Below are positions 15,005-59,519 of a stretch of 64,000 nt of DNA, in pieces. Origin of the DNA: an uncultured Candidatus Saccharibacteria bacterium. GTDB lineage: Bacteria; Patescibacteriota; Minisyncoccia; Phycocordibacterales; G965230995. Made by a program: the position numbers and the translations under genes. The notes beneath the pieces are model-generated. The model made no database searches. It worked only from the letters and a program-made list of their open reading frames with translations, and was not told the DNA's origin. How positions within the stretch are numbered: position 1 is the stretch's first letter; each line of letters starts with the position of its first letter. The DNA lies in the NCBI GenBank assembly GCA_965230995.1, contig OZ246398.1:656213-720212 (forward strand). The letters are read 5' to 3'.

Positions 15005-16516
15005 TTATTTTTCAAAAAGCGACTCTCCTGCCATAGAAGAAGGCTTTTTTAGGCCAAATAATTCCAAAACAGTAGGAGCTACATCGCACAAACCACCATT
15101 TCTGATTTTCCTATCGGGTATATTAACAATTACAGGAACCGGGTTTGTTGTATGGGCAGTATGTTTAGCACCAGTTGTTTGGTCTATGTTTATCTCTGCA
15201 TTTCCATGATCAGCAGTAATAATCAAAGTAACACCTCTTTTTTCTGCCAGTTCTACAATTTTGCCTAATTCTAGATCGACTTCTTCTATGGCTTCTATTA
15301 TCGCCGGAACATTTGCAGTATGCCCTACCATATCTGGATTGGCATAATTCATCAAAATAAATTCTGTTCCAGATTCAATTTGCTCAATTGCCTTTTCTGT
15401 TATTTCCTTTGCTTTCATCTTTGGAGCCAAATCGTGTGTTGGAACATCTTTTCTGCTTGGAACCATTATATGAGATTCACCCTTGTGCTTTCCTTCGAAA
15501 CCTCCGTTAAAGAAATATGTGACGTGAGCATATTTTTCTGTCTCTGCAATATGAACTTGTGTAATACCTGCATTTGCTAATTCCACAGCAAGAGATGCGT
15601 CCACCCTAAGCGGAGGAAATGCAACGTCACAGTGAAAATCTGCTTCGTATTCTGTTAATGTAACAAAATATATATCAGAATCAGTAGCTTTTTGTATTAT
15701 TTTTTCTGAAAGCATTCTGGCTCTGTCTGCTCTAAAATTGAAAAAGAAGACGCCATCGTGAGCCTTTATTTTGTAGTCATCATTACTTCCATCCGAAAAC
15801 ACTACGGGTTCGATATGTTCATCGACTTTTCCTTTACCATAAAGCTGTTTTAGATATTCTGAAGGTTCGATAGTGCAAAAATCACCCTTACATTCAAACA
15901 AAGCTTTCTCTACTCTCTCAAGCCTGTCCCAATTATGGTCTCGGTCCATTGCAAAAAACCTTCCAGAGAGCGATGCAATAAAACCGATTCCGATTTCTTT
16001 AATTTTATTTTCAAGATTTTTTACATACTCTGCCCCGCTTTGTGGTGGAGTGTCCCTACCATCTGTAAAAATATGTATTGCTACTTTCTTTACTCCTGCT
16101 TTTTTTGCAGATTCAAGAAAAGCAAAAAGATGTTCCATATGACTGTGTACACCGCCCGGACTAAGCAAACCCTGAACGTGTAAAACAGAATTATTTTTCT
16201 TTACGTGTTCAAAAAGTTTTTTAAAAGATTCATTTGTATCAAATTCACCTGCTTTTATTGCATTTGCAATTCTAACCAAGTCTGTTGGAACAGGTGTTCC
16301 AGCACCTAGCGTTGTGTGCCCGACTTCACTATTTCCCATTTGGCCCTCTGGTAAACCCACAGCAAGCCCGCTTGCTTTTAGTAGCGCATGCGGATATGTA
16401 TTCCATAATCTATCAAAATTAGGTTTTTTTGATGCTGCAATTGCGTTATCCTTTGTGTCTTCTCTATATCCCCAACCGTCCAAAATAATCAGTGCTACTT
16501 GTTTTTTTGTATTCAT
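15005..16516 (-). CDS. gpmI: 2,3-bisphosphoglycerate-independent phosphoglycerate mutase
   Basis: 503 aa. Begins ALIILDGWGYRED and carries the metal-binding motifs of iPGM. Confidence 0.9.
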   Translation of the reverse strand: MNTKKQVALIILDGWGYREDTKDNAIAASKKPNFDRLWNTYPHALLKASGLAVGLPEGQMGNSEVGHTTLGAGTPVPTDLVRIANAIKAGEFDTNESFKKLFEHVKKNNSVLHVQGLLSPGGVHSHMEHLFAFLESAKKAGVKKVAIHIFTDGRDTPPQSGAEYVKNLENKIKEIGIGFIASLSGRFFAMDRDHNWDRLERVEKALFECKGDFCTIEPSEYLKQLYGKGKVDEHIEPVVFSDGSNDDYKIKAHDGVFFFNFRADRARMLSEKIIQKATDSDIYFVTLTEYEADFHCDVAFPPLRVDASLAVELANAGITQVHIAETEKYAHVTYFFNGGFEGKHKGESHIMVPSRKDVPTHDLAPKMKAKEITEKAIEQIESGTEFILMNYANPDMVGHTANVPAIIEAIEEVDLELGKIVELAEKRGVTLIITADHGNAEINIDQTTGAKHTAHTTNPVPVIVNIPDRKIRNGGLCDVAPTVLELFGLKKPSSMAGESLFEK

Positions 16517-16559
16517 ACGCGCGATTATACACTATTTTAAGGCTTTTATTCAATGAAAA

Positions 16560-16590
16560 AAGAAAAAGCCCGAACGGGCTTTTTCTTTTT
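16560..16590. terminator. bidirectional rho-independent terminator (AAAGCCCGAACGGGCTTT plus T-run)
   Basis: GC hairpin flanked by A-run and T-run between eno and gpmI. Confidence 0.7.
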
Positions 16591-16592
16591 GA

Positions 16593-17876
16593 TTACGCTT
16601 TGAAAGCTTTTTTTCCTGCAAAGGTTGCTTTTTTGCCAAGGTATTCTTCGATTCGAAGCAATTTATTGTATTTTGCAACGCGATCACTTCGAGATAGTGA
16701 TCCTGTCTTTATCTGACCTGTTCCAAGACCAACAACGACATCAGCAATAGTTGAATCTTCTGTTTCGCCTGATCTATGAGAAACGATTGATGTATAGCCA
16801 GCTTTTTTTGCCATATTTATCGCATCAATAGTTTCTGTTACTGTTCCAATTTGATTTAATTTTATCAAAATTGAATTTCCAGCCTTGATTGAAATACCTT
16901 TTGCTAGTCTTTCTGTATTTGTTACAAACAAATCATCTCCAACAATTTGGACTTTCTTTCCGAGTTTCTTTGTCATCAAAATATATCCATCCCAATCGTC
17001 TTCGTGTAGAGGGTCTTCTATTGATAGGATTGGATATTTAGATACCCAGGCTTCATACATAGATATCATTTCTTCGCTTGAGAGAACTTTGTTTTCACAA
17101 ACTAGATGATATTTTCCATCTTTGTATAATTCGCTTGCCGCAGCATCTATTGCAATTCCGATATCTTTTCCTGGAACATATCCGGCTTTTGTGATTGCTT
17201 CGATAATTAATTCAAGAGCACCTTCGTTTGAAGTAAGTGATGGTGCAAAACCACCTTCATCACCAACAGTTGTAGCAAAACCTTTTTCTTTTAGAATTTT
17301 CTTTAGAGTGTGAAATACATCTGTACCCCACATCAAGGCTTCGCTAAAAGTCTTGGCACCAGCAGGCATTATCATAAATTCTTGCAAATCTGTTGATTTG
17401 TCTGCGTGTTTTCCTCCGTTTAGGATATTCATCATTGGGACAGGAAGTCTCATTTCATAGCCAGTCTTTCCAATTTGTTTAAAATATTTTGCCAAAGGAA
17501 CTTTTTTTGATTGACTTGTTGCTTTTGCAAAAGCCAAAGAAACACCGAGAATTGCATTTGCTCCTAATTTGCCTTTGTTGTTTGTTCCATCTAATTCAAT
17601 CATTGCCATATCGATTGTTTTTTGCGTCCATTCTTTGCCTTTTATCAATTTTGAAATGACTGTATTTATATTTGAAACAGCGTTCAAAACACCTTTTCCG
17701 CCGTATCTCTTTCCACCATCTCGAAGCTCAACAGCTTCGTGACTTCCAGTTGAAGCGCCAGATGGCACAGATGCCCTACCAAAGCTTCCATCCGCAAGTG
17801 TTATTTCAACCTCGACTGTAGGATTACCTCGCGAATCCAAAATCTCTCTTCCCCATACTTTTTTTATTTTTGACAT
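16593..17876 (-). CDS. eno: enolase
   Basis: 427 aa. [13 protein letters not shown] and [13 protein letters not shown] motifs. Confidence 0.95.
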
Positions 17877-17929: not shown

Positions 17930-17985
17930 TTGATTTTTTTATAGAACTGTTGTATAGTAATAATAGGTTCGAAACAGTTCCTAAT
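17930..17985 (+). promoter_or_regulatory. promoter of island B gene (TTGATT-17-TGTATAGT) bracketed by 8-bp inverted repeat GAACTGTT / AACAGTTC; predicted transcript starts at ATAGGTTCGAAAC
   Basis: -35 at 17930-35 and extended -10 at 17951-58. The inverted repeat at 17944-51 and 17972-79 flanks the -10/TSS region. Confidence 0.5.
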
Positions 17986-18011
17986 CGGCAATCAATTTAG
18001 CGAGGTGTGTA

Positions 18012-18383
18012 ATGGACGCTGACAGACCTGGAATAGTGATCACCACCAGGGCAGACATCTCTCAGTTCGAGTTCCTGCGTCTGGTTCAGGATGGGTTGCT
18101 CAGATTCATCTGCGAACACGACGATTTAGAGGGGCAGTTCGTAGCCGTGGAGATTAATCTCTCCGACAGTAACCTGCCCGCACGTGGTGAGGGCATCGAG
18201 GCAGAAATCAAGTTCATCTTCTGCTACGACCGGATGACGAGCTTTCCGAGGTATCACCGCTTCTCAATCAACATGGGGAAGCAATTCCTTGAATCGGATA
18301 ACGTTCGCATGATCCACTCGGAGTTCCTTGACAACAGGGACAGCATCACCGTCAAGGCACGTATGGCACTTGCACAACAGTAA
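18012..18383 (+). CDS. hypothetical protein (123 aa) in GC-rich island B
   Basis: About 52% GC ORF with GAGGTG Shine-Dalgarno, own promoter and own terminator. No recognisable domain. Confidence 0.55.
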   Translation: MDADRPGIVITTRADISQFEFLRLVQDGLLRFICEHDDLEGQFVAVEINLSDSNLPARGEGIEAEIKFIFCYDRMTSFPRYHRFSINMGKQFLESDNVRMIHSEFLDNRDSITVKARMALAQQ

Positions 18384-18398
18384 CCGACACAGGAGGAT

Positions 18399-18428
18399 GG
18401 GCGCGTAAAGCTTGACGCGCCTTTTTTG
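18399..18428 (+). terminator. rho-independent terminator of island B gene (GGCGCGT-aaagcttga-CGCGCC plus TTTTTT)
   Basis: GC-rich hairpin plus T6. Confidence 0.75.
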
Positions 18429-18519
18429 ATACAAAAATCCCTATACAGCAAAGAGTTTTTATGATATATTTCTTACTCAATAGAAATATGGGCTGAAAGG
18501 TCTTTTTTAAATAGAATTT

Positions 18520-41997: not shown

Positions 41998-42500
41998 ACC
42001 GATTAAAAACAGAAAAGCCCGACACGATAATCAGACTAATCTGTTCCGTGTACGGACTTGTGCTACTTCTCCTGACTGCTGGAACGGGTCGCACGACCGA
42101 AATCTGTGGCGAAAAGCTCCTTGATATACTTTTCGTGTTTCATCCAGAATTCGATATTCCGTTCGAGCTCGGTACGAACTCGGCTGGGCGCAAGCATACC
42201 CCGCAAGACAACTGCCCGATTGAGACACTCGTCGTAGTTGAGGAACTTTTGCCCCTCATCACGCGCCGAGAACCTCATCTCTACTTTGCCCTTCTTCTTC
42301 AACATAATCCTCGCAATGCCACACTTTTTGCTGAATTGCGACAGGACTTGAGAGAAGATCGCGTTGTTCAGAGCAAGAGCAACCTCGTCTCGAGCGCTGC
42401 GGCATGACTTTCGAGTCATGTGAACCCCCAAAAAATCTAAGAACTGAGAATCGAAGTTTCGAACCTATTTATAAATGATAATCAAAAAAATATTTACAGC
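41998..42500. other. GC-rich island C (single-gene foreign-composition cassette between convergent rnr and smc)
   Basis: About 55% GC. Own promoter, leader motif ATAGGTTCGAAAC and terminator-like hairpin. Confidence 0.65.
42063..42419 (-). CDS. hypothetical protein (about 118 aa) in GC-rich island C
   Basis: ATG at 42419 (the ORF track's extra 4 codons start at a TTG). GGGGG Shine-Dalgarno upstream. The plus-strand 119-aa ORF is judged a shadow ORF. Confidence 0.5.
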   Translation of the reverse strand: MTRKSCRSARDEVALALNNAIFSQVLSQFSKKCGIARIMLKKKGKVEMRFSARDEGQKFLNYDECLNRAVVLRGMLAPSRVRTELERNIEFWMKHEKYIKELFATDFGRATRSSSQEK

Positions 42501-47582: not shown

Positions 47583-48374
47583 TTATCTTCTGTTCATTTT
47601 TCTCCTCATTCTCATAACATCGAGCGAACTTGCTTCTTCTTCTCTAATAGTTGTACCTGTTAGGGCCAAAAATGCCTCTTCGAGATTATTTGTTTTTGTC
47701 TGTGTTTTTAATTGTTCTGACGTACCCGAAGCAATTATTTTTCCGTGGTCAATAATAGCTATTCTTTGAGCAATCTTTTCTGCTTCTTCCATATAATGAG
47801 TAGTAAAAAATATTGTTGTTCCCTCTTCTTGGTTTAATTTTTTTAGATACTCCCACATATGATTTCTCGTTTGTGGGTCGAGACCTATTGTAGGTTCATC
47901 AAGAAAAAATATTTTTGGATGATGCAGTAGACCGCGAGCAATTTCGAGTCGCCTCTTCATACCACCAGAAAATTCCTTTACAAAGCTGTCCTTTCTGTCC
48001 CAAAGATCAACAAACCGAAGCAATTCTTCCATTCGTGTTCTTCGAACTTTTTTTGGTATATCGTACAAAACTCCATGAAATTCAAGATTCTCCCATGCGG
48101 TGAGCTCATCGTCGGTACTCGGATCCTGAAAAACAATACCGAAAGAACGCCTGGCTTCATCAGGATTTGAAACCGGGTCAAAATCATTTAATCTCAGAGT
48201 TCCAGAGGTTGGATCAAGTAGTGTTGTGAGCATCTTTATTGTTGTGGATTTTCCTGCACCGTTCGGTCCAAGAAAAGCAAAAATCTCTCCTTTTTTTACG
48301 TCGAAAGAAATATCATTTACTGCAGTAAAGTCCTTGAATTTCTTTACTAAATTTTTTACCTCAATACTATTCAT
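47583..48374 (-). CDS. ABC transporter ATP-binding protein
   Basis: Walker A GPNGAGKST, signature SGGMKRR, Walker B FFLDEP. Confidence 0.9.
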   Translation of the reverse strand: MNSIEVKNLVKKFKDFTAVNDISFDVKKGEIFAFLGPNGAGKSTTIKMLTTLLDPTSGTLRLNDFDPVSNPDEARRSFGIVFQDPSTDDELTAWENLEFHGVLYDIPKKVRRTRMEELLRFVDLWDRKDSFVKEFSGGMKRRLEIARGLLHHPKIFFLDEPTIGLDPQTRNHMWEYLKKLNQEEGTTIFFTTHYMEEAEKIAQRIAIIDHGKIIASGTSEQLKTQTKTNNLEEAFLALTGTTIREEEASSLDVMRMRRKMNRR

Positions 48375-48418
48375 AATTCTCGGTATTCTATCACAAAAAT
48401 TTTAAATAAACAAAAAGC

Positions 48419-48449
48419 GTCCGGTTTCGGGGGTGGAACCCGAAACCGG
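48419..48449 (-). terminator. rho-independent terminator of island D gene (TCCGGTTTCGGG-ggtggaa-CCCGAAACCGGA)
   Basis: 12-bp perfect stem. T-run on the minus strand (CGCTTTTTGTTTATTT). Confidence 0.7.
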
Positions 48450-48465
48450 ACGCGAGGACGGACGC

Positions 48466-48882
48466 TCACTTGCTGGCAAGAAGCCAGAGAGCGATGAACC
48501 CGGCGAGAATTCCTGCGACCTTGCGGACCGTGAGTTCACCACTCATCACCATGTGGTAGACTGCCGGAACGGCAAACTGTACCACAAGCATGATGAGGAA
48601 GTACTTCCCGATTTCCGCTTGACTCGCCTTGGCACAGATGGTGTTAAGTGCCAGGACGCCAATCGCCCCGATGAGTCCTGCCAGCAACGCGATGAGGAAC
48701 GATCCTTTATCGTGTGCGACAGTCTGACCAAAGAGGGGTAGCGTAAACCCTACAACAAACGCAATTGTCATCGCCCACAACCACGAGGCGAACGGGCCCG
48801 AAAGCCCAGAGCGACTCATCACTAAGGGCCAGGCTGCGAAAGACAGACCAGTCACAACAGCGAGGATGTAGTACCGCATCAA
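48466..48882 (-). CDS. small 4-TM membrane protein (SMR/DMT-like architecture) in GC-rich island D
   Basis: 138 aa with four hydrophobic helices. AGGAG Shine-Dalgarno. Confidence 0.55.
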   Translation of the reverse strand: MMRYYILAVVTGLSFAAWPLVMSRSGLSGPFASWLWAMTIAFVVGFTLPLFGQTVAHDKGSFLIALLAGLIGAIGVLALNTICAKASQAEIGKYFLIMLVVQFAVPAVYHMVMSGELTVRKVAGILAGFIALWLLASK

Positions 48883-49032
48883 ATTCTCCTGGTTCGTTGT
48901 TCACAAAGTCCAATTCGTCTTAAATGATAACATATTGTATATAAAACGTCAATATATAAAGGAAATATGCACACACATTTAGCACTTTTTAGTAGGATTA
49001 GTTATTAATTAAAAATAACAATATTTTGTTTA

Positions 49033-54883: not shown

Positions 54884-54892
54884 CCAAAACAA

Positions 54893-54921
54893 AAAGCCCC
54901 GCGCGTAGCGCGGGGCTTTTT
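54893..54921. terminator. bidirectional rho-independent terminator (AAAAGCCCCGCGC-gta-GCGCGGGGCTTTT)
   Basis: 13-bp GC stem with flanking A and T runs between thrS and gyrB. Confidence 0.8.
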
Positions 54922-54924
54922 GTT

Positions 54925-57018
54925 TTAAATATCCAATCTCGCCTCTTTTGCATTTGACTGTATAAATGTTTTTCTGGCTGGAACGTCTGTACCCATCAAA
55001 ACATCGAATATCTTGTCTGCAGAAACGGCATCTTCAACGGTAACCAATTTTAACACCCTAGCCTTTGGATCCATTGTTGTCTCCCATAATTCTTCAGCGT
55101 TCATTTCTCCGAGACCTTTGTATCTTTGTACTCTGACTTTTGAAGCTTTCTTTTGGACTGCCTCTTCGTTTTCTTCTTCACCCTCAGCATCTTCTGATTC
55201 AACCACCATTTCTTCTTTGCCTACTAGTTTGTTTTTTTCTTCATCAGAATACGCATAAGAGATTGCTTTACCCTTTTGGATTTTATATAAAGGTGGCTGA
55301 GCAATATAAATATATCCAGCATCGATAAGTGGTCTAAAATAACGGTAGAATAATGTCAAAAGCAATGTCCTAATGTGTGCACCGTCAACGTCGGCATCGG
55401 TTGCTATGATGACTTTGTGGTATCGCAATTTTTCAATTTCGAATGTATCACCAATTGCAGTTCCAAGAGCTACCACAAGATTTCTAATTTGTTCTGATCC
55501 GAGCATTCTATCCAATCTAGCTCTTTCAATGTTTAGAATCTTACCTCGCAAAGGCAGAATTGCCTGCGTTCTCCTGTCTCGTCCCATCTTTGCAGTACCA
55601 CCAGCAGAGTCTCCCTCTACAATAAACAATTCTGATTCGTTGGCGCTCTTTGTCTGACAATCAGCAAGCTTTCCAGGCAATGTCATACCGTCCAAGGCCC
55701 CTTTTCGAAGCACGGAATCTTTTGCTGCTTTTGCTGCTTTTCTAGCCTTTAGGGCAAGAAGAGATTTGTTGATTATATTTTTTGCATCATCTGGGTGCTC
55801 TTCGAGATATTCGGCAAAAGCCTCACCAAATATCGTTGTCACCATTCCTTGCGCTTCCATAGAACCGAGCTTTGCTTTTGTTTGACCTTCGAATTGAATC
55901 TCTCGCAATTTAACAGAAATAGCACACGTTAGACCTTCGAGCACATCGTCTCCGGTAAAGTTCTCGTCTTTTTCTTTTAGAATGTTGTTCTTTCTACCAT
56001 ATGCATTGAGAGTTCTCGTAAGAGTTGTTTTGAAACCTGTTACGTGAGTACCGCCCTCTCCGTTATAAATATTGTTTGCAAAAGGCAAGATTCTCGAAGA
56101 AATATCATCAACATATTGTAAAGACACTTCTACGCTTTCATATTCGTTTACTGGTTTTTCAACGTAAAAAATATTTTTATGTACTGGTTTAAATATCTGG
56201 TTGTAGAATTTTACAAGAGAAACTAGACCTCCTTCGAAATAGAAAGACATTGAAGGAACATCGAGTCCCAAGTCCTTGAGATAAAATTCACCCTCAATAT
56301 CGAGATCTCCCTCGTATTCTCTGGCGTCAATTACTGTAATTCGAAGACCTTTGACCAAATATGCTTGCTGTCTCAAATGAGAAACAATTCTCTTCCATTC
56401 AAATTTTACTTCTTTAAATATTTCTATGTCTGGTTTAAAAGACACAACTGTTCCGTGTTTGTCTGATTTGCCAATCTTTTTAACAAGAGCCTTTCTCTTT
56501 CCTTGAGAATATTCCTGCATATGAATATTACCCTCGCTGTGGACTTCGACTTTACAGAAAACAGATAGTGCGTTTACAACTGAAGCACCCACACCGTGAA
56601 GACCTCCGGAGACTTTGTAACCCTCACCGCCAAATTTTCCTCCGGCATGGAGAGTTGTCATAATTGTCTCGAGAGCAGATACGCCAGTTTTTTTATGTAT
56701 TCCAACAGGAATACCACGACCGTTATCTACTACTCTAATTATATCACCAGGAAGTATTGCAACTTCGATTTCATTTGCATGACCGTTCATCGCCTCGTCT
56801 CTCGAGTTGTCGAATATTTCCCAAATCAAATGATGAAGACCATCTGGTCCTGTTGTACCAATATACATTCCAGGCCTTTTTCGTACCGGTTCAAGTCCTT
56901 CGAGGACTGTGATATCGTCTGCCCCATACGAGCCCTTTGGTTTTTTTTCCTCTTTATCTTTAGCCATTTTTTGTGAATTTAATGGGATAATTATAGCAAA
57001 TTTTAGAGTATTCCGCAA
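54925..57018 (-). CDS. gyrB: type IIA topoisomerase ATPase subunit (DNA gyrase subunit B)
   Basis: GHKL ATPase motifs (LHHLIWEIFDNSRDE, GLHGVGASVVNA), TOPRIM EGDSAGG, C-terminal GyrB tail. Likely true start at MAKDKEE (about 56967). Confidence 0.85.
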   Translation of the reverse strand: MRNTLKFAIIIPLNSQKMAKDKEEKKPKGSYGADDITVLEGLEPVRKRPGMYIGTTGPDGLHHLIWEIFDNSRDEAMNGHANEIEVAILPGDIIRVVDNGRGIPVGIHKKTGVSALETIMTTLHAGGKFGGEGYKVSGGLHGVGASVVNALSVFCKVEVHSEGNIHMQEYSQGKRKALVKKIGKSDKHGTVVSFKPDIEIFKEVKFEWKRIVSHLRQQAYLVKGLRITVIDAREYEGDLDIEGEFYLKDLGLDVPSMSFYFEGGLVSLVKFYNQIFKPVHKNIFYVEKPVNEYESVEVSLQYVDDISSRILPFANNIYNGEGGTHVTGFKTTLTRTLNAYGRKNNILKEKDENFTGDDVLEGLTCAISVKLREIQFEGQTKAKLGSMEAQGMVTTIFGEAFAEYLEEHPDDAKNIINKSLLALKARKAAKAAKDSVLRKGALDGMTLPGKLADCQTKSANESELFIVEGDSAGGTAKMGRDRRTQAILPLRGKILNIERARLDRMLGSEQIRNLVVALGTAIGDTFEIEKLRYHKVIIATDADVDGAHIRTLLLTLFYRYFRPLIDAGYIYIAQPPLYKIQKGKAISYAYSDEEKNKLVGKEEMVVESEDAEGEEENEEAVQKKASKVRVQRYKGLGEMNAEELWETTMDPKARVLKLVTVEDAVSADKIFDVLMGTDVPARKTFIQSNAKEARLDI

Positions 57019-57044
57019 AAGAACTTTTCCACTTTTTAAGCTAT

Positions 57045-57598
57045 GAAAGGCTTTACATTATTGACTGATGTGGTACAATAGAGAACCAGAAGCAAGGCTA
57101 CATGCTCACTCGGGTATGGTCTTGTTTAGAAAATTCTTTTTTTGAGAGGGCTACAAAATGGCCAAAAAAAAATCAGAGCCACTGGCAGTACAGAGGATGA
57201 AAACCTTCGTAGGAAGGTTTCCCGTCCTGGTCTCAAGCCGTGAAAAGCTCTCGGAGCTTCGGGTCCTCCAGTTGGTACGCCAGTCCTTGCTGGCCCCCGG
57301 CAATGACACCGTCGACACCAGGACCATCGACGAACTGGTGGAGGAGGGTTTGTCCGTAGATGCCGCGTACAGGTCACTTTTGTACCCGACCGGTACGGGC
57401 TACGAAGTGGACGAGAAGCTGTTCAACAATTTCTACACCATCTACGGTGCGTTGAAGTTGATGAAGCGGCGCCCAGACATGTGTACCACCAGAACCTTCA
57501 GTGTGAAGAAGGTGGTAGCCTGAAGCATGGTCTAGCCACCCATGCAGGAGTAAGCCGCGCAATCCCCCGGGAAAGTGCGGCTTCAACGTTTATACTAG
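57045..57598. other. GC-rich island E (single-gene foreign-composition cassette between gyrB and pheT)
   Basis: About 55% GC. Promoter TTTACA-16-TGgTACAAT. Confidence 0.6.
57158..57523 (+). CDS. hypothetical protein (121 aa) in GC-rich island E
   Basis: ORF with GAGAGG Shine-Dalgarno. Minus-strand ORFs here are judged shadow ORFs. No recognisable domain. Confidence 0.5.
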   Translation: MAKKKSEPLAVQRMKTFVGRFPVLVSSREKLSELRVLQLVRQSLLAPGNDTVDTRTIDELVEEGLSVDAAYRSLLYPTGTGYEVDEKLFNNFYTIYGALKLMKRRPDMCTTRTFSVKKVVA

Positions 57599-57599
57599 A

Positions 57600-59519
57600 T
57601 TATCTAACCACCCAGCCTTTTTCAGAAAAAGCTTTGCTTATTGCCTCCATAATTGGATTTACTTCTTCGACAGTGAGAGTCCTTTCAAATGATTGGAATA
57701 TCAATCTAAAAGCAATAGATTTTTTCTTTTGTCCGTCTATTTCTTTTTCAAAGACATCAAAGAGATATTTTTTAATACAGAGCTCATCAACATTTTCAGA
57801 GATTACTTTTTCTACATCTTGTGGGTTGATTTCCATCGGGACAAAAACAGCAATGTCTCTGGATACAAATGGATATGCGGAAAACTTTTGGAATTTTTTA
57901 TCACCAGGCAAAGACTTGAAACCGAGATCAGAAATGGAATCCTTTTCTGGAAGATTTTTTATTACATCACTAAGATTAGCTTCCCAAATATAACCGAATT
58001 CACCCTTTGTTATTTCACCATCTAATTTTATGCCGAGACCGCTTTCAATTTTTGAAACAGTATCTTTCAATATATTCTCGGGTAATACTCCTTTTTTCTT
58101 TTTAATAATATTTATTCCAATTGCGAGGTGTGTTTCTTCACCATTTTTTGTAAACACCTCACCGATTTCAAACAATTTTATACTTTCCAAAGAGAGCAAA
58201 TCTGAATTTCTACTATTTAGGGTCAAGGATTCTGCAAGTTTTTTTGAAAGCTTTTCTCGCAATGCAGATTTATCGCTCGCTAAGGGATACGCAATTTCAA
58301 AATGACCTTTGTCCACCAAAGAATACAGAAGCGTTTCGCTATATCCATCGAGAGAAAGAATATTTTTTATTTTTTCTGAATAATAGAATATTTTATTTGG
58401 TGAAATTTTGTATGATAGTGGCTCCAAATTTTTTGAAGATATTTTGTCGTATCCTATTACCCTACCGATTTCATCTGCAATATCTTCTTCTATTTTTAAA
58501 TCAAGTCTTTCAAATGGCGGAATAATTTCAATCAATTCACCATTTTGTTTGACTTCGCAACCCATTTTTTGCATTGATTCCTCGATAAAACCAGCCTTTA
58601 GGTCTACTCCTAGAATTGCTTCTATGTTTTCTTTTTTGACATCTATCTTCCATTTTTTAGCTTTTTCTGGATATATATCGCTTTGCGCTCCAAAGTTAGC
58701 GTTTGGTATTGATTCTTTAATCAAAACACAAATCTCTCGCATTGCTTCCCCTGCGAGCTCCTCACTAATTTCATTTTCAAATCTTTTTGAAGAATCGTTT
58801 CTGAGATTGTATTTTGTTGAAGTTCTTCTTACGATAGACGGCTTAAAATTAGCAGATTCAATTACAATATTTTTTGTTGCATTTGTTACCTCAGCTCTTT
58901 TACCACCTTTTACACCAGCAATTGCAAGCGGTCCTGTATTGTCGGCTATTACCAAATCTTTTTCACTCAAAATGACCTTTTCGCCAGTTAGCAAAATAAT
59001 CTCCTCACCTTCTTTTGCGTTTCTCACAAAAATACCGCCGTCAATTTTATCCGCATCAAAAATATGCATTGGCTGACCGACATCGAACATAACAAAATTC
59101 GCGACATCAACGAGAAAATTAATACTTTTTTGTCCGATTGCTTCTAGATTATTTTTTATCCAATCTGGTGTTTTGGTTTCTGTAATATTCGTAACTTCTC
59201 TTGCAATATATCTTCGGCAAAGGTTTTTATCATTTATTTCAACCTTGAATTTTGGTGGCACACTTGATGAAATTTCTGTAAATGTCGGTTCTTTAATTTG
59301 TAGTCCAGTCAAAACCATTATTTCTCTTGCAACGCCTCTGTGGCACAAAAGATAGTGTGCCCTATCTGGCAAAACTTTTCCTTCTATGACTAAGTCATTA
59401 TTTTTTTCTTCGATTCCTTCTACTTCGAATAGATGATTAGTAAAAATCTCTTCCAATTTTTTCGCGTCTGGAATTTTGGTTTGGAAATATGAACTTAGCC
59501 AATTATGAGAAACTTTCAT
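57600..59519 (-). CDS. pheT: phenylalanine--tRNA ligase beta subunit (short form)
   Basis: B3/B4 and B5 domains plus C-terminal FDX-ACB-like region. 639 aa. Follows pheS. Confidence 0.85.
   Translation of the reverse strand: MKVSHNWLSSYFQTKIPDAKKLEEIFTNHLFEVEGIEEKNNDLVIEGKVLPDRAHYLLCHRGVAREIMVLTGLQIKEPTFTEISSSVPPKFKVEINDKNLCRRYIAREVTNITETKTPDWIKNNLEAIGQKSINFLVDVANFVMFDVGQPMHIFDADKIDGGIFVRNAKEGEEIILLTGEKVILSEKDLVIADNTGPLAIAGVKGGKRAEVTNATKNIVIESANFKPSIVRRTSTKYNLRNDSSKRFENEISEELAGEAMREICVLIKESIPNANFGAQSDIYPEKAKKWKIDVKKENIEAILGVDLKAGFIEESMQKMGCEVKQNGELIEIIPPFERLDLKIEEDIADEIGRVIGYDKISSKNLEPLSYKISPNKIFYYSEKIKNILSLDGYSETLLYSLVDKGHFEIAYPLASDKSALREKLSKKLAESLTLNSRNSDLLSLESIKLFEIGEVFTKNGEETHLAIGINIIKKKKGVLPENILKDTVSKIESGLGIKLDGEITKGEFGYIWEANLSDVIKNLPEKDSISDLGFKSLPGDKKFQKFSAYPFVSRDIAVFVPMEINPQDVEKVISENVDELCIKKYLFDVFEKEIDGQKKKSIAFRLIFQSFERTLTVEEVNPIMEAISKAFSEKGWVVR

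Follow-up and report, generated by a model that had tools for sequence, protein, structure and literature searches.

We propose that island E, a GC-rich block holding a single 121-aa open reading frame (ORF) between gyrB and pheT in contig OZ246398.1, is an accessory cassette, moron-like and horizontally supplied, with an ORF body that would have been swapped inside a conserved expression shell; we give this explanation about an even chance. The stretch analysed, called the window below, is 64,000 nt long. The most informative fact lay beyond what a first, sequence-only reading of the window could see: compared across genomes, the gyrB–pheT slot is empty in distant relatives and differently filled in sister species.

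The gene order rnhB–dnaE–thrS–gyrB–pheT–pheS is old and widespread, being conserved across 80 metagenomic loci of distant relatives recovered with DnaE at 54–64% identity. From the gyrB start (56967) to the pheT stop (57600), both genes lying on the minus strand, the window has 632 bp, against gyrB–pheT gaps of 106–197 bp in the distant relatives L051, L068, L082 and L088 (loci are cited by number). The original state of the slot was therefore empty. The three nearest relatives, L041, L043 and L039, were found through PheT (PheT 61–64%, GyrB 81–92% identity), and each holds in the slot a small ORF oriented like that of island E (hereafter E), with a third-position GC content (GC3) above the 0.25–0.33 of its host (Table 1). 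These ORFs resemble neither E nor one another: BLASTP returned an E-value of 1.3 or nothing, Smith–Waterman scores against shuffles gave z from −1.0 to 1.7 (−1.0 to 0.5 for the body of E), and a six-frame comparison and the correlation of hydropathy profiles stayed at null level. The promoters, leaders and terminators of L043 and L039 also differ from those of island E, so that gain or replacement of whole cassettes has happened repeatedly at this position.

With the closest relative, L041 (GyrB 91–92%, PheS 84–85% and a 280-aa hypothetical protein 66% identical), the resemblance stops inside the gene itself. Positions 57010–57146 of the window, with both promoters, the leader hairpin and its U-tract, are ~70% identical to L041 (E-value 1e-13 to 1e-23), and so are positions 57529–57594 with the terminator (1e-4 to 1e-6). 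Pairwise alignment carries the similarity into about the first 13 codons and recovers it a few bases past the stop, and for the ORF body in between blastn finds nothing. The −35, TG and −10 elements are of the same type in both genomes. The leader hairpin has an equivalent in L041 with wobble-to-Watson–Crick changes on the 5′ arm, and in the terminator hairpin an A–T pair closing the stem has become G–C. Among 127 loci, the shell motifs occur only in this genome and in L041.

Ordinary vertical divergence does not account for this contrast. At four-fold degenerate sites of gyrB, pheS and pheT, identity to L041 is 0.41–0.48 where composition predicts 0.32–0.34, so roughly 18% of neutral sites are unchanged. 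Neutral descent without indels would predict an identity of ~0.41 between the two ORF bodies; the in-register value is 0.26–0.30, and the null 0.28 ± 0.024. Over the same time, neutral GC3 would be expected to decay from ~0.78 to ~0.38 (the genome equilibrium is 0.29), and both bodies still stand at 0.70–0.77. Identity below that of neutral sites, combined with undecayed GC3, excludes ordinary vertical divergence. Two possibilities are left: replacement of the body once the species had separated, or its rewriting at a more than neutral pace in a regime that favours GC.

The predicted signals around E would make island E a complete one-gene transcription unit. Each element that the sequence-only reading had described was found again: a short block at about 55% GC (0.53–0.56 in 300-nt windows over 57100–57599; 0.544 for the ORF alone), an extended −10 promoter, a leader, a 121-aa ORF with no recognisable domain, and shadow ORFs on the opposite strand (83 and 70 aa). 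The promoter is credible because it is conserved in L041; the match alone is at chance level, since shuffles yield on average 0.9 equally good sites per 800-nt stretch. The leader, first put at 80 nt, measures ~72–78 nt from a predicted transcript start near 57081–57086 to the ATG. Its hairpin appears in both the minimum free energy (MFE) and the centroid fold, and a consensus scan flagged 57101–57118 plus GTCTTGTTTA as terminator-like; hairpin and U-tract may serve for attenuation or may stabilise the 5′ end. The terminator hairpin has a weak U-tract (CAACGTTTAT) and was not called by the consensus scan, and it is kept in L041. No tRNA adjoins the island.

A 12-nt direct repeat flanks the terminator hairpin, one copy (TCTAGCCACCCA, 57531–57542) lying just after the stop of E and the other (TCTAACCACCCA, 57603–57614) at the pheT 3′ end. 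L041 has a degenerate counterpart. As chance alone would give about 0.5 pairs of this kind, the repeat may mean nothing, or it could be an insertion trace.

Table 1. Features of the gyrB–pheT slot, of its counterparts in relatives and of the other islands of the window (positions are those of the window).
Feature	Position	Strand	Remarks
gyrB	54925–56967	−	Left flank of the slot; likely start ATG 56967, listed ORF reaches TTG 57018
gyrB promoter, TTGCGG-17-TATAAT	56990–57018	−	Predicted, read from sequence; divergent from the cassette; kept in L041 and L039
Cassette promoter, TTTACA-16-TGgTACAAT	57052–57079	+	Predicted; −35 57052–57057, TG 57071–57072, −10 57074–57079; 10 of 12 consensus matches; conserved in L041
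Leader hairpin and U-rich tract	57090–57127 (tract 57125–57143)	+	Predicted; terminator- or attenuator-like, or 5′ stabiliser
Shine–Dalgarno-like GAGAGGG	57144–57150	+	Putative, read from sequence; 7–8 nt upstream of the ATG
ORF E, 121 aa	57158–57523	+	13.7 kDa, pI 9.6; no transmembrane segment; predicted all-helical
First ~13 codons of E	57158–57196	+	Nucleotide-alignable with L041; assigned to the shell
Body of ORF E	57197–57520	+	Unrelated to the slot ORFs of sister species; putatively swapped part
GC-rich hairpin terminator	57552–57583	+	Predicted; inverted repeat in the convergent gap, 16 nt from the pheT stop; fold z −2.9
pheT	57600–59519	−	Right flank of the slot; Pfam B3_4, B5 and FDX-ACB domains
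L041 slot ORF			122 aa; GC3 0.70
L043 slot ORF			122 aa; GC3 0.76
L039 / L040 slot ORF			85 aa; GC3 0.61
Island A	6425–7730	+	361-aa protein starting at 6560 with a signal peptide; promoter and terminators of its own; GC3 0.78; strict orphan
Island B	17940–18425	+	123-aa ORF 18012–18383; GC3 0.69; between enolase and typA
Island C	42000–42470	−	119-aa ORF 42063–42422; GC3 0.64; between RNase R and SMC
Island D	48405–48945	−	137-aa hydrophobic, probably membrane-spanning protein 48466–48879; GC3 0.65; between an ABC ATPase and RNase HII

E is protein-coding and uses codons unlike those of its host. GC content at the three codon positions is 0.51, 0.39 and 0.73, a pattern that the shadow ORFs mirror, and the difference between third and second positions (0.336) lies 5.3 standard deviations (SD) from 5000 base shuffles. 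Measured against 51 window ORFs of at least 70 aa (GC3 0.29 ± 0.05), E is 8.6 SD above the host mean at third positions and just 0.7–1.3 SD high at first and second positions; its flanks, gyrB and pheT, have GC3 of 0.31 and 0.26. The first 13 codons stand apart (GC3 0.46, against 0.77 in the remaining codons), and for this reason we assign them to the conserved shell. The ORFs of all five GC-rich islands of the window behave alike: +6.9 to +8.9 SD for GC3, +0.5 to +1.9 SD for GC1 and 0 to +2.4 SD for GC2. Codons such as CGG, CGC, CCC, GGG, CTG, TCG and ACC occur often in the islands and hardly ever in gyrB, pheT, rpoB, rpoC and thrS. The native, fast-evolving 280-aa hypothetical protein shared with L041 has a GC3 of 0.26.

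Outside this genome, E has no recognisable relative. A search of 5.8 billion clusters and a full HMMER pass over 1.84 billion representatives returned only the match to itself; Pfam, PHROGs, PADLOC and NCBIfam gave no match, the sole hit at E-values up to 1 in PADLOC, Pfam and NCBIfam being a non-significant one to SpxA (0.14). By these models E does not belong to the known anti-phage defence or toxin–antitoxin proteins. Nothing was found in the PDB by sequence, in phages and plasmids by tblastn, or in IMG/VR, and Rfam had no match to the island at its gathering threshold nor at E-values up to 1. A single-sequence AlphaFold2 (AF2) model of E is helical, with a low-confidence predicted local distance difference test score (pLDDT) of 60, at which the best Foldseek hit in the PDB (E-value 1.3) is meaningless. 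By eye, residues 53–76 (TIDELVEEGLSVDAAYRSLL) gave the impression of a helix-turn-helix, which no model backs. The first reading had held that its finding would be refuted by an ORF conserved nowhere, or by a lack of co-occurrence together with host-like composition. E indeed lacks any homolog, while its composition is far from host-like; we judge the rule on conservation too strict, because E is coding by its codon-position composition and is clearly non-host in that composition. In the literature we found nothing specific on GC-rich islands or orphans in Patescibacteria, nor on the sequencing runs.

On our hypothesis, the space between gyrB and pheT serves as a hot spot of gene turnover. An expression shell, made up of the extended −10 promoter, the hairpin leader, a ribosome-binding site with the first ~13 A-rich codons, and a terminator shared with the convergent pheT, would have been fixed in the lineage of this genome and L041 and kept by selection, and the ORF body would have been exchanged once the species had separated. 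DNA uptake, which might be competence-mediated in Patescibacteria, followed by recombination within the shell and the flanking core genes, gyrB and pheT, would be the likely route. The incoming body would stem from an unsampled, GC-richer gene pool. Patescibacteria loci with core GC3 of 0.71–0.79 occur in the same kind of samples, and GC-rich Patescibacteria are conceivable donors. Published work traces the majority of the transfers detected in Patescibacteria to other Patescibacteria as the source (PMC12455944). Our guess is that the E protein, which is predicted to be basic, soluble and helical, might be a strain-specific interaction factor directed at phage, host or competitor, and, in view of its basic charge and the helix-turn-helix-like stretch that no model backs, possibly nucleic-acid-binding.

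Several observations weigh against an imported cassette. Neither a donor nor a homolog of E or of the island A protein was found in about 15 billion proteins or in IMG/VR, which would be odd if the source were a sampled lineage. At GC3 0.69, the class has first- and second-position values of ~0.60 and 0.42–0.51, whereas the islands have 0.52 and 0.38; the GC excess thus sits mostly at silent sites, the reverse of what an ameliorating GC-rich import should look like. Relative synonymous codon usage (RSCU) correlates equally well with GC-rich Patescibacteria and with GC-rich Bacteroidales, so a donor is not identifiable by codon usage. Three of the slot ORFs are nearly equal in length (121, 122 and 122 aa), as change in place would predict better than separate acquisitions. 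The five islands yielded neither an integrase or transposase nor an att-like repeat or shared recombination site. The function proposed is a guess, and the AF2 model is weak (pLDDT 60) and has no fold match.

The alternative that gains most from these points is that E is native and specific to its lineage, passed on vertically and altered in place at a rate above that of neutral DNA, while some force specific to the locus holds its silent sites GC-rich. Targeted hypermutation, GC-biased gene conversion at a hyper-recombining locus, and selection for GC-ending rare codons or mRNA properties are candidates for this force. The shell conserved with L041 down to the first ~13 codons fits such a gene, as do the matching lengths (121 aa here, 122 aa in L041 and again 122 aa in L043), GC1 and GC2 near host values beside a third-position excess, and the absence of external homologs for every island protein searched. 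It has to cope with a body more diverged than the four-fold sites of its neighbours, for which ordinary drift or positive selection would be insufficient, so that it would require a dedicated mutator; the window has no template repeat and no silent copy, and its annotated genes include no reverse transcriptase. Other fast-evolving native genes are AT-rich, and L043 and L039 show that the whole cassette does get replaced at this slot. Gene conversion is also reported to have only small effects on bacterial GC3, which we count against this account. All told we consider it rather unlikely, although the silent-site excess, the equal lengths, the missing donor and the missing mobility genes keep some resident mechanism alive. 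A related idea, which we find distinctly less probable still, is that the clade practises a programmed renewal of small genes, with fixed shells between housekeeping genes whose ORF bodies a GC-favouring process would replace wholesale or rewrite at more than neutral speed. If true, it would be a previously undescribed diversity-generating system that makes lineage-unique proteins without homologs.

The remaining explanations deny E a protein ancestry, a coding role or a place in this genome. Its strict orphan status and low-confidence structure prediction would suit an ORF born recently as a chance long reading frame in a GC-rich non-coding insert, and the 70–83 aa shadow ORFs show that such DNA yields frames on the other strand too. 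Such a de novo birth is very unlikely: the order GC3 > GC1 > GC2 (5.3 SD from shuffles) recurs in all five islands and in three relatives, islands A and D have features of evolved proteins (a signal peptide and long hydrophobic stretches), and the origin of the GC-rich insert itself would be left to explain. We set the probability of a structured non-coding RNA gene with an incidental ORF lower again, even though a GC-rich island in an AT-rich genome often turns out to be an RNA gene and the full-length transcript (519 nt) has a fold 4.55 SD better than its dinucleotide shuffles. That signal (z −4.55) is due to the hairpins at both ends; for the ORF alone, codon and synonymous shuffles put the fold at z −2.1, inside the span of host ORF controls (+0.9 to −3.3). 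There is no Rfam match, even at E-values up to 1, the interior is not conserved with L041, and three-base periodicity is strong behind a well-spaced Shine–Dalgarno site. An assembly chimera or contamination, that is, a foreign GC-rich fragment stitched into an AT-rich contig, would account for the sharp composition boundaries in a metagenome-derived genome. Its probability is next to negligible, as the DNA of island E recurs 100% identical, with no strain variation, in independent Logan assemblies of two runs (SRR14271365 and SRR14271366) and is also present in the 742,714-bp NCBI contig. In addition, the junctions coincide exactly with the predicted promoter and terminator, an unrelated ENA sample has the shell in conserved form, and three relatives from other samples show the same pattern.

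Coming back to the horizontally supplied cassette, the known system that it resembles most in its working is the phage moron. A moron is reportedly a single gene that brings along a sigma-70 promoter and a factor-independent terminator, and is said to lie, with deviant base composition, between genes that are adjacent in related phages. Island E likewise has one gene and a predicted near-consensus promoter of its own; the stable, conserved stem-loop downstream is a candidate terminator. It is wedged between genes that are directly adjacent in related genomes, differs from its neighbours in composition, and shares its slot with different occupants in relatives. Unlike a moron, it lies in a chromosome between essential housekeeping genes and not in a prophage, with no phage gene among its annotated neighbours and no PHROG match. 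Further differences are a terminator without a good U-tract, a GC content above that of the host where acquired genes and orphans are usually AT-richer, and a species pair (this genome and L041) that shares the regulatory shell but not the gene body. By this comparison, island E would be moron-like in its working, but chromosomal.

Other mobile or variable systems fit less of the picture, and island E falls outside known protein, RNA, integron, diversity-generating retroelement (DGR) and classical-island families. The pneumococcal capsule locus between dexB and aliA is a hypervariable accessory locus exchanged by homologous recombination after DNA uptake; island E has the same fixed position, conserved flanks that could serve as recombination arms and unrelated content in close relatives, but it comprises only ~0.3–0.5 kb with one small gene, and its exchange boundaries would lie within its own regulatory shell and first codons. 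Integron cassettes are likewise single small ORFs, often orphans, of heterogeneous composition and function. The five islands, in contrast, are scattered and not arrayed, each with its own promoter and terminator; all-against-all blastn of their upstream and downstream flanks, in agreement with repeat scans, found no attC-like shared element, and no integrase is among the annotated neighbours, a scan covering only part of the window's genes. DGRs are common in bacteria of the candidate phyla radiation (CPR), and a locally hypervariable coding sequence in a conserved context, in a lineage where they are frequent, recalls them. The variation in island E, however, spans ~320 nt of the ORF body and not a short C-terminal variable region; the 64-kb window holds no second copy of any island sequence that could be a template repeat, and the annotated neighbouring genes include no reverse transcriptase. 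E shares with ORFans the lack of homologs, the short length and the atypical composition. Orphans are reportedly AT-richer, in general, than their own genome, whereas the islands are ~40 points higher in GC3 and form complete expression units. A classical genomic island (>10 kb, with tRNA, integrase and direct repeats) differs from the 0.55 kb of island E, which has just the 12-nt repeat at chance level.

The sequence-only reading counted island E as the fifth of its kind in 64 kb. An objective scan for stretches whose GC exceeds the window mean by more than 0.12 over 250 nt or longer agrees with it, returning exactly five islands (6481–7730, 17971–18450, 42041–42430, 48371–48930 and 57141–57650), spaced 6–24 kb apart and each with its own promoter and one ORF of GC3 0.64–0.78. 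Thus GC-outlier ORFs make up 5 of 56 in the window, about 9% of the ORFs in 64 kb; the 10 kb adjoining the window on the left contain none. Core genes of the class often have small accessory ORFs between them; inserted gaps clearly GC-richer than their own core genes, however, number just 3 of 74 (L041, L072 and L075). Four more distant low-GC relatives have 0, 0, 0 and 1 GC3-outlier genes among 15–19 genes each. Given this rarity, the density of cassettes is a trait of this genome and its nearest kin.

The suggestion that the five island proteins form a co-occurring set did not hold up. Compared with one another, the islands have no protein similarity, leader, terminator, backbone, attC-like site or terminal repeat in common, and nothing in their sequences suggests that they form one system. 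The proposed check by phylogenetic profile turned out to carry no information, because the island proteins searched are confined to this genome: A and E by homology search, A (361 aa) having no homologs, and B, D and E as singleton clusters. Islands C and D had no match in IMG/VR. For island B, a stretch of 36 residues with 37% identity to the viral contig L127 (878–991) in IMG/VR was set aside as probable noise, its E-value of 1e-4 being relative to just three candidate stretches.

A few details of single islands deserve mention. The E and B proteins, both ~120 aa, align by Smith–Waterman 3.6 SD above shuffles, 1% of which reach the score; with 15 pairs tested, this is marginal. Islands B and C have a 13-nt string, ATAGGTTCGAAAC, in common (17980–17995 and 42445–42460), located just downstream of their −10 boxes at the predicted 5′ ends of the transcripts; no similarity extends beyond it and it may be chance. 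In island A, an in-frame ATG at 6440 leads gene callers to lengthen the protein to 401–406 aa, ahead of the signal-peptide start at 6560. In the leader of island A (6440–6475), a T-run (AAGACGCTAACCCGTCTTTTAATTTT) comes after a short hairpin, an attenuator-like arrangement that recalls island E.

The metagenomic relatives also offered observations outside the slot. L042, a more distant relative (PheT 54%, 32% GC), has a 1.3-kb island at 50% GC (15481–16780) with a 63-aa ORF and a 256-aa ORF of GC3 0.65 and hydrophobic N-terminus. TTGACA-type promoters precede both ORFs, and such islands are therefore seen beyond this genome. In L039, a 710-bp insert (7019–7718) separates gyrB from thrS, which are 41 bp apart in the window; it is not GC-rich, holds short ORFs only, and is another variable slot in the same syntenic block. 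In the window, the convergent thrS–gyrB gap (54884–54924, 41 bp) has 56% GC and presumably contains a shared hairpin terminator, comparable to that at 57552–57583. Among loci L045–L124, which share the rnhB–dnaE–thrS–gyrB–pheT synteny, core GC3 ranges from 0.15 to 0.79, and genomic GC is very labile in the class.

The window itself has a GC content of 37.1% (0.371) and consists mostly of housekeeping genes: rpoB- and rpoC-sized ORFs, dnaE, thrS, gyrB, pheST, enolase, typA, RNase R and SMC. Homologs of PheT and DnaE place it among Paceibacteria-type Patescibacteria (CPR), and a scan of GTDB species representatives with PheT found no close relatives (top match 37%). The neighbours of island E are gyrB, thrS, dnaE, pheT, pheS and a glycosyltransferase gene. 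By tblastn, the gyrB product is 91% identical to that of L041, and Pfam gyrase domains were seen on its orthologs. Far from island E, a group I intron (Rfam, 4779–5071) splits a tRNA gene in the anticodon loop (4735–5112, minus strand). ARAGORN missed this tRNA in the intact window and called it after in-silico splicing. Directly upstream of the split gene lies a GIY-YIG ORF (5107–5400, minus strand), likely a homing endonuclease.

The interest of island E lies mainly in the slot comparison and in the silent-site GC excess, and less in the protein itself. The excess is either a clue to the donor or the sign of an unusual local evolutionary force. Genomes of CPR bacteria and Patescibacteria are tiny and their accessory genes mostly unannotated, and the means by which cells so reduced acquire new functions are still debated. 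If the cassette explanation proved general, it would flag a pool of GC-rich proteins that are missing from present databases, and it would offer a testable picture of gene gain in these organisms, in which small plug-in units are acquired at fixed intergenic sites.

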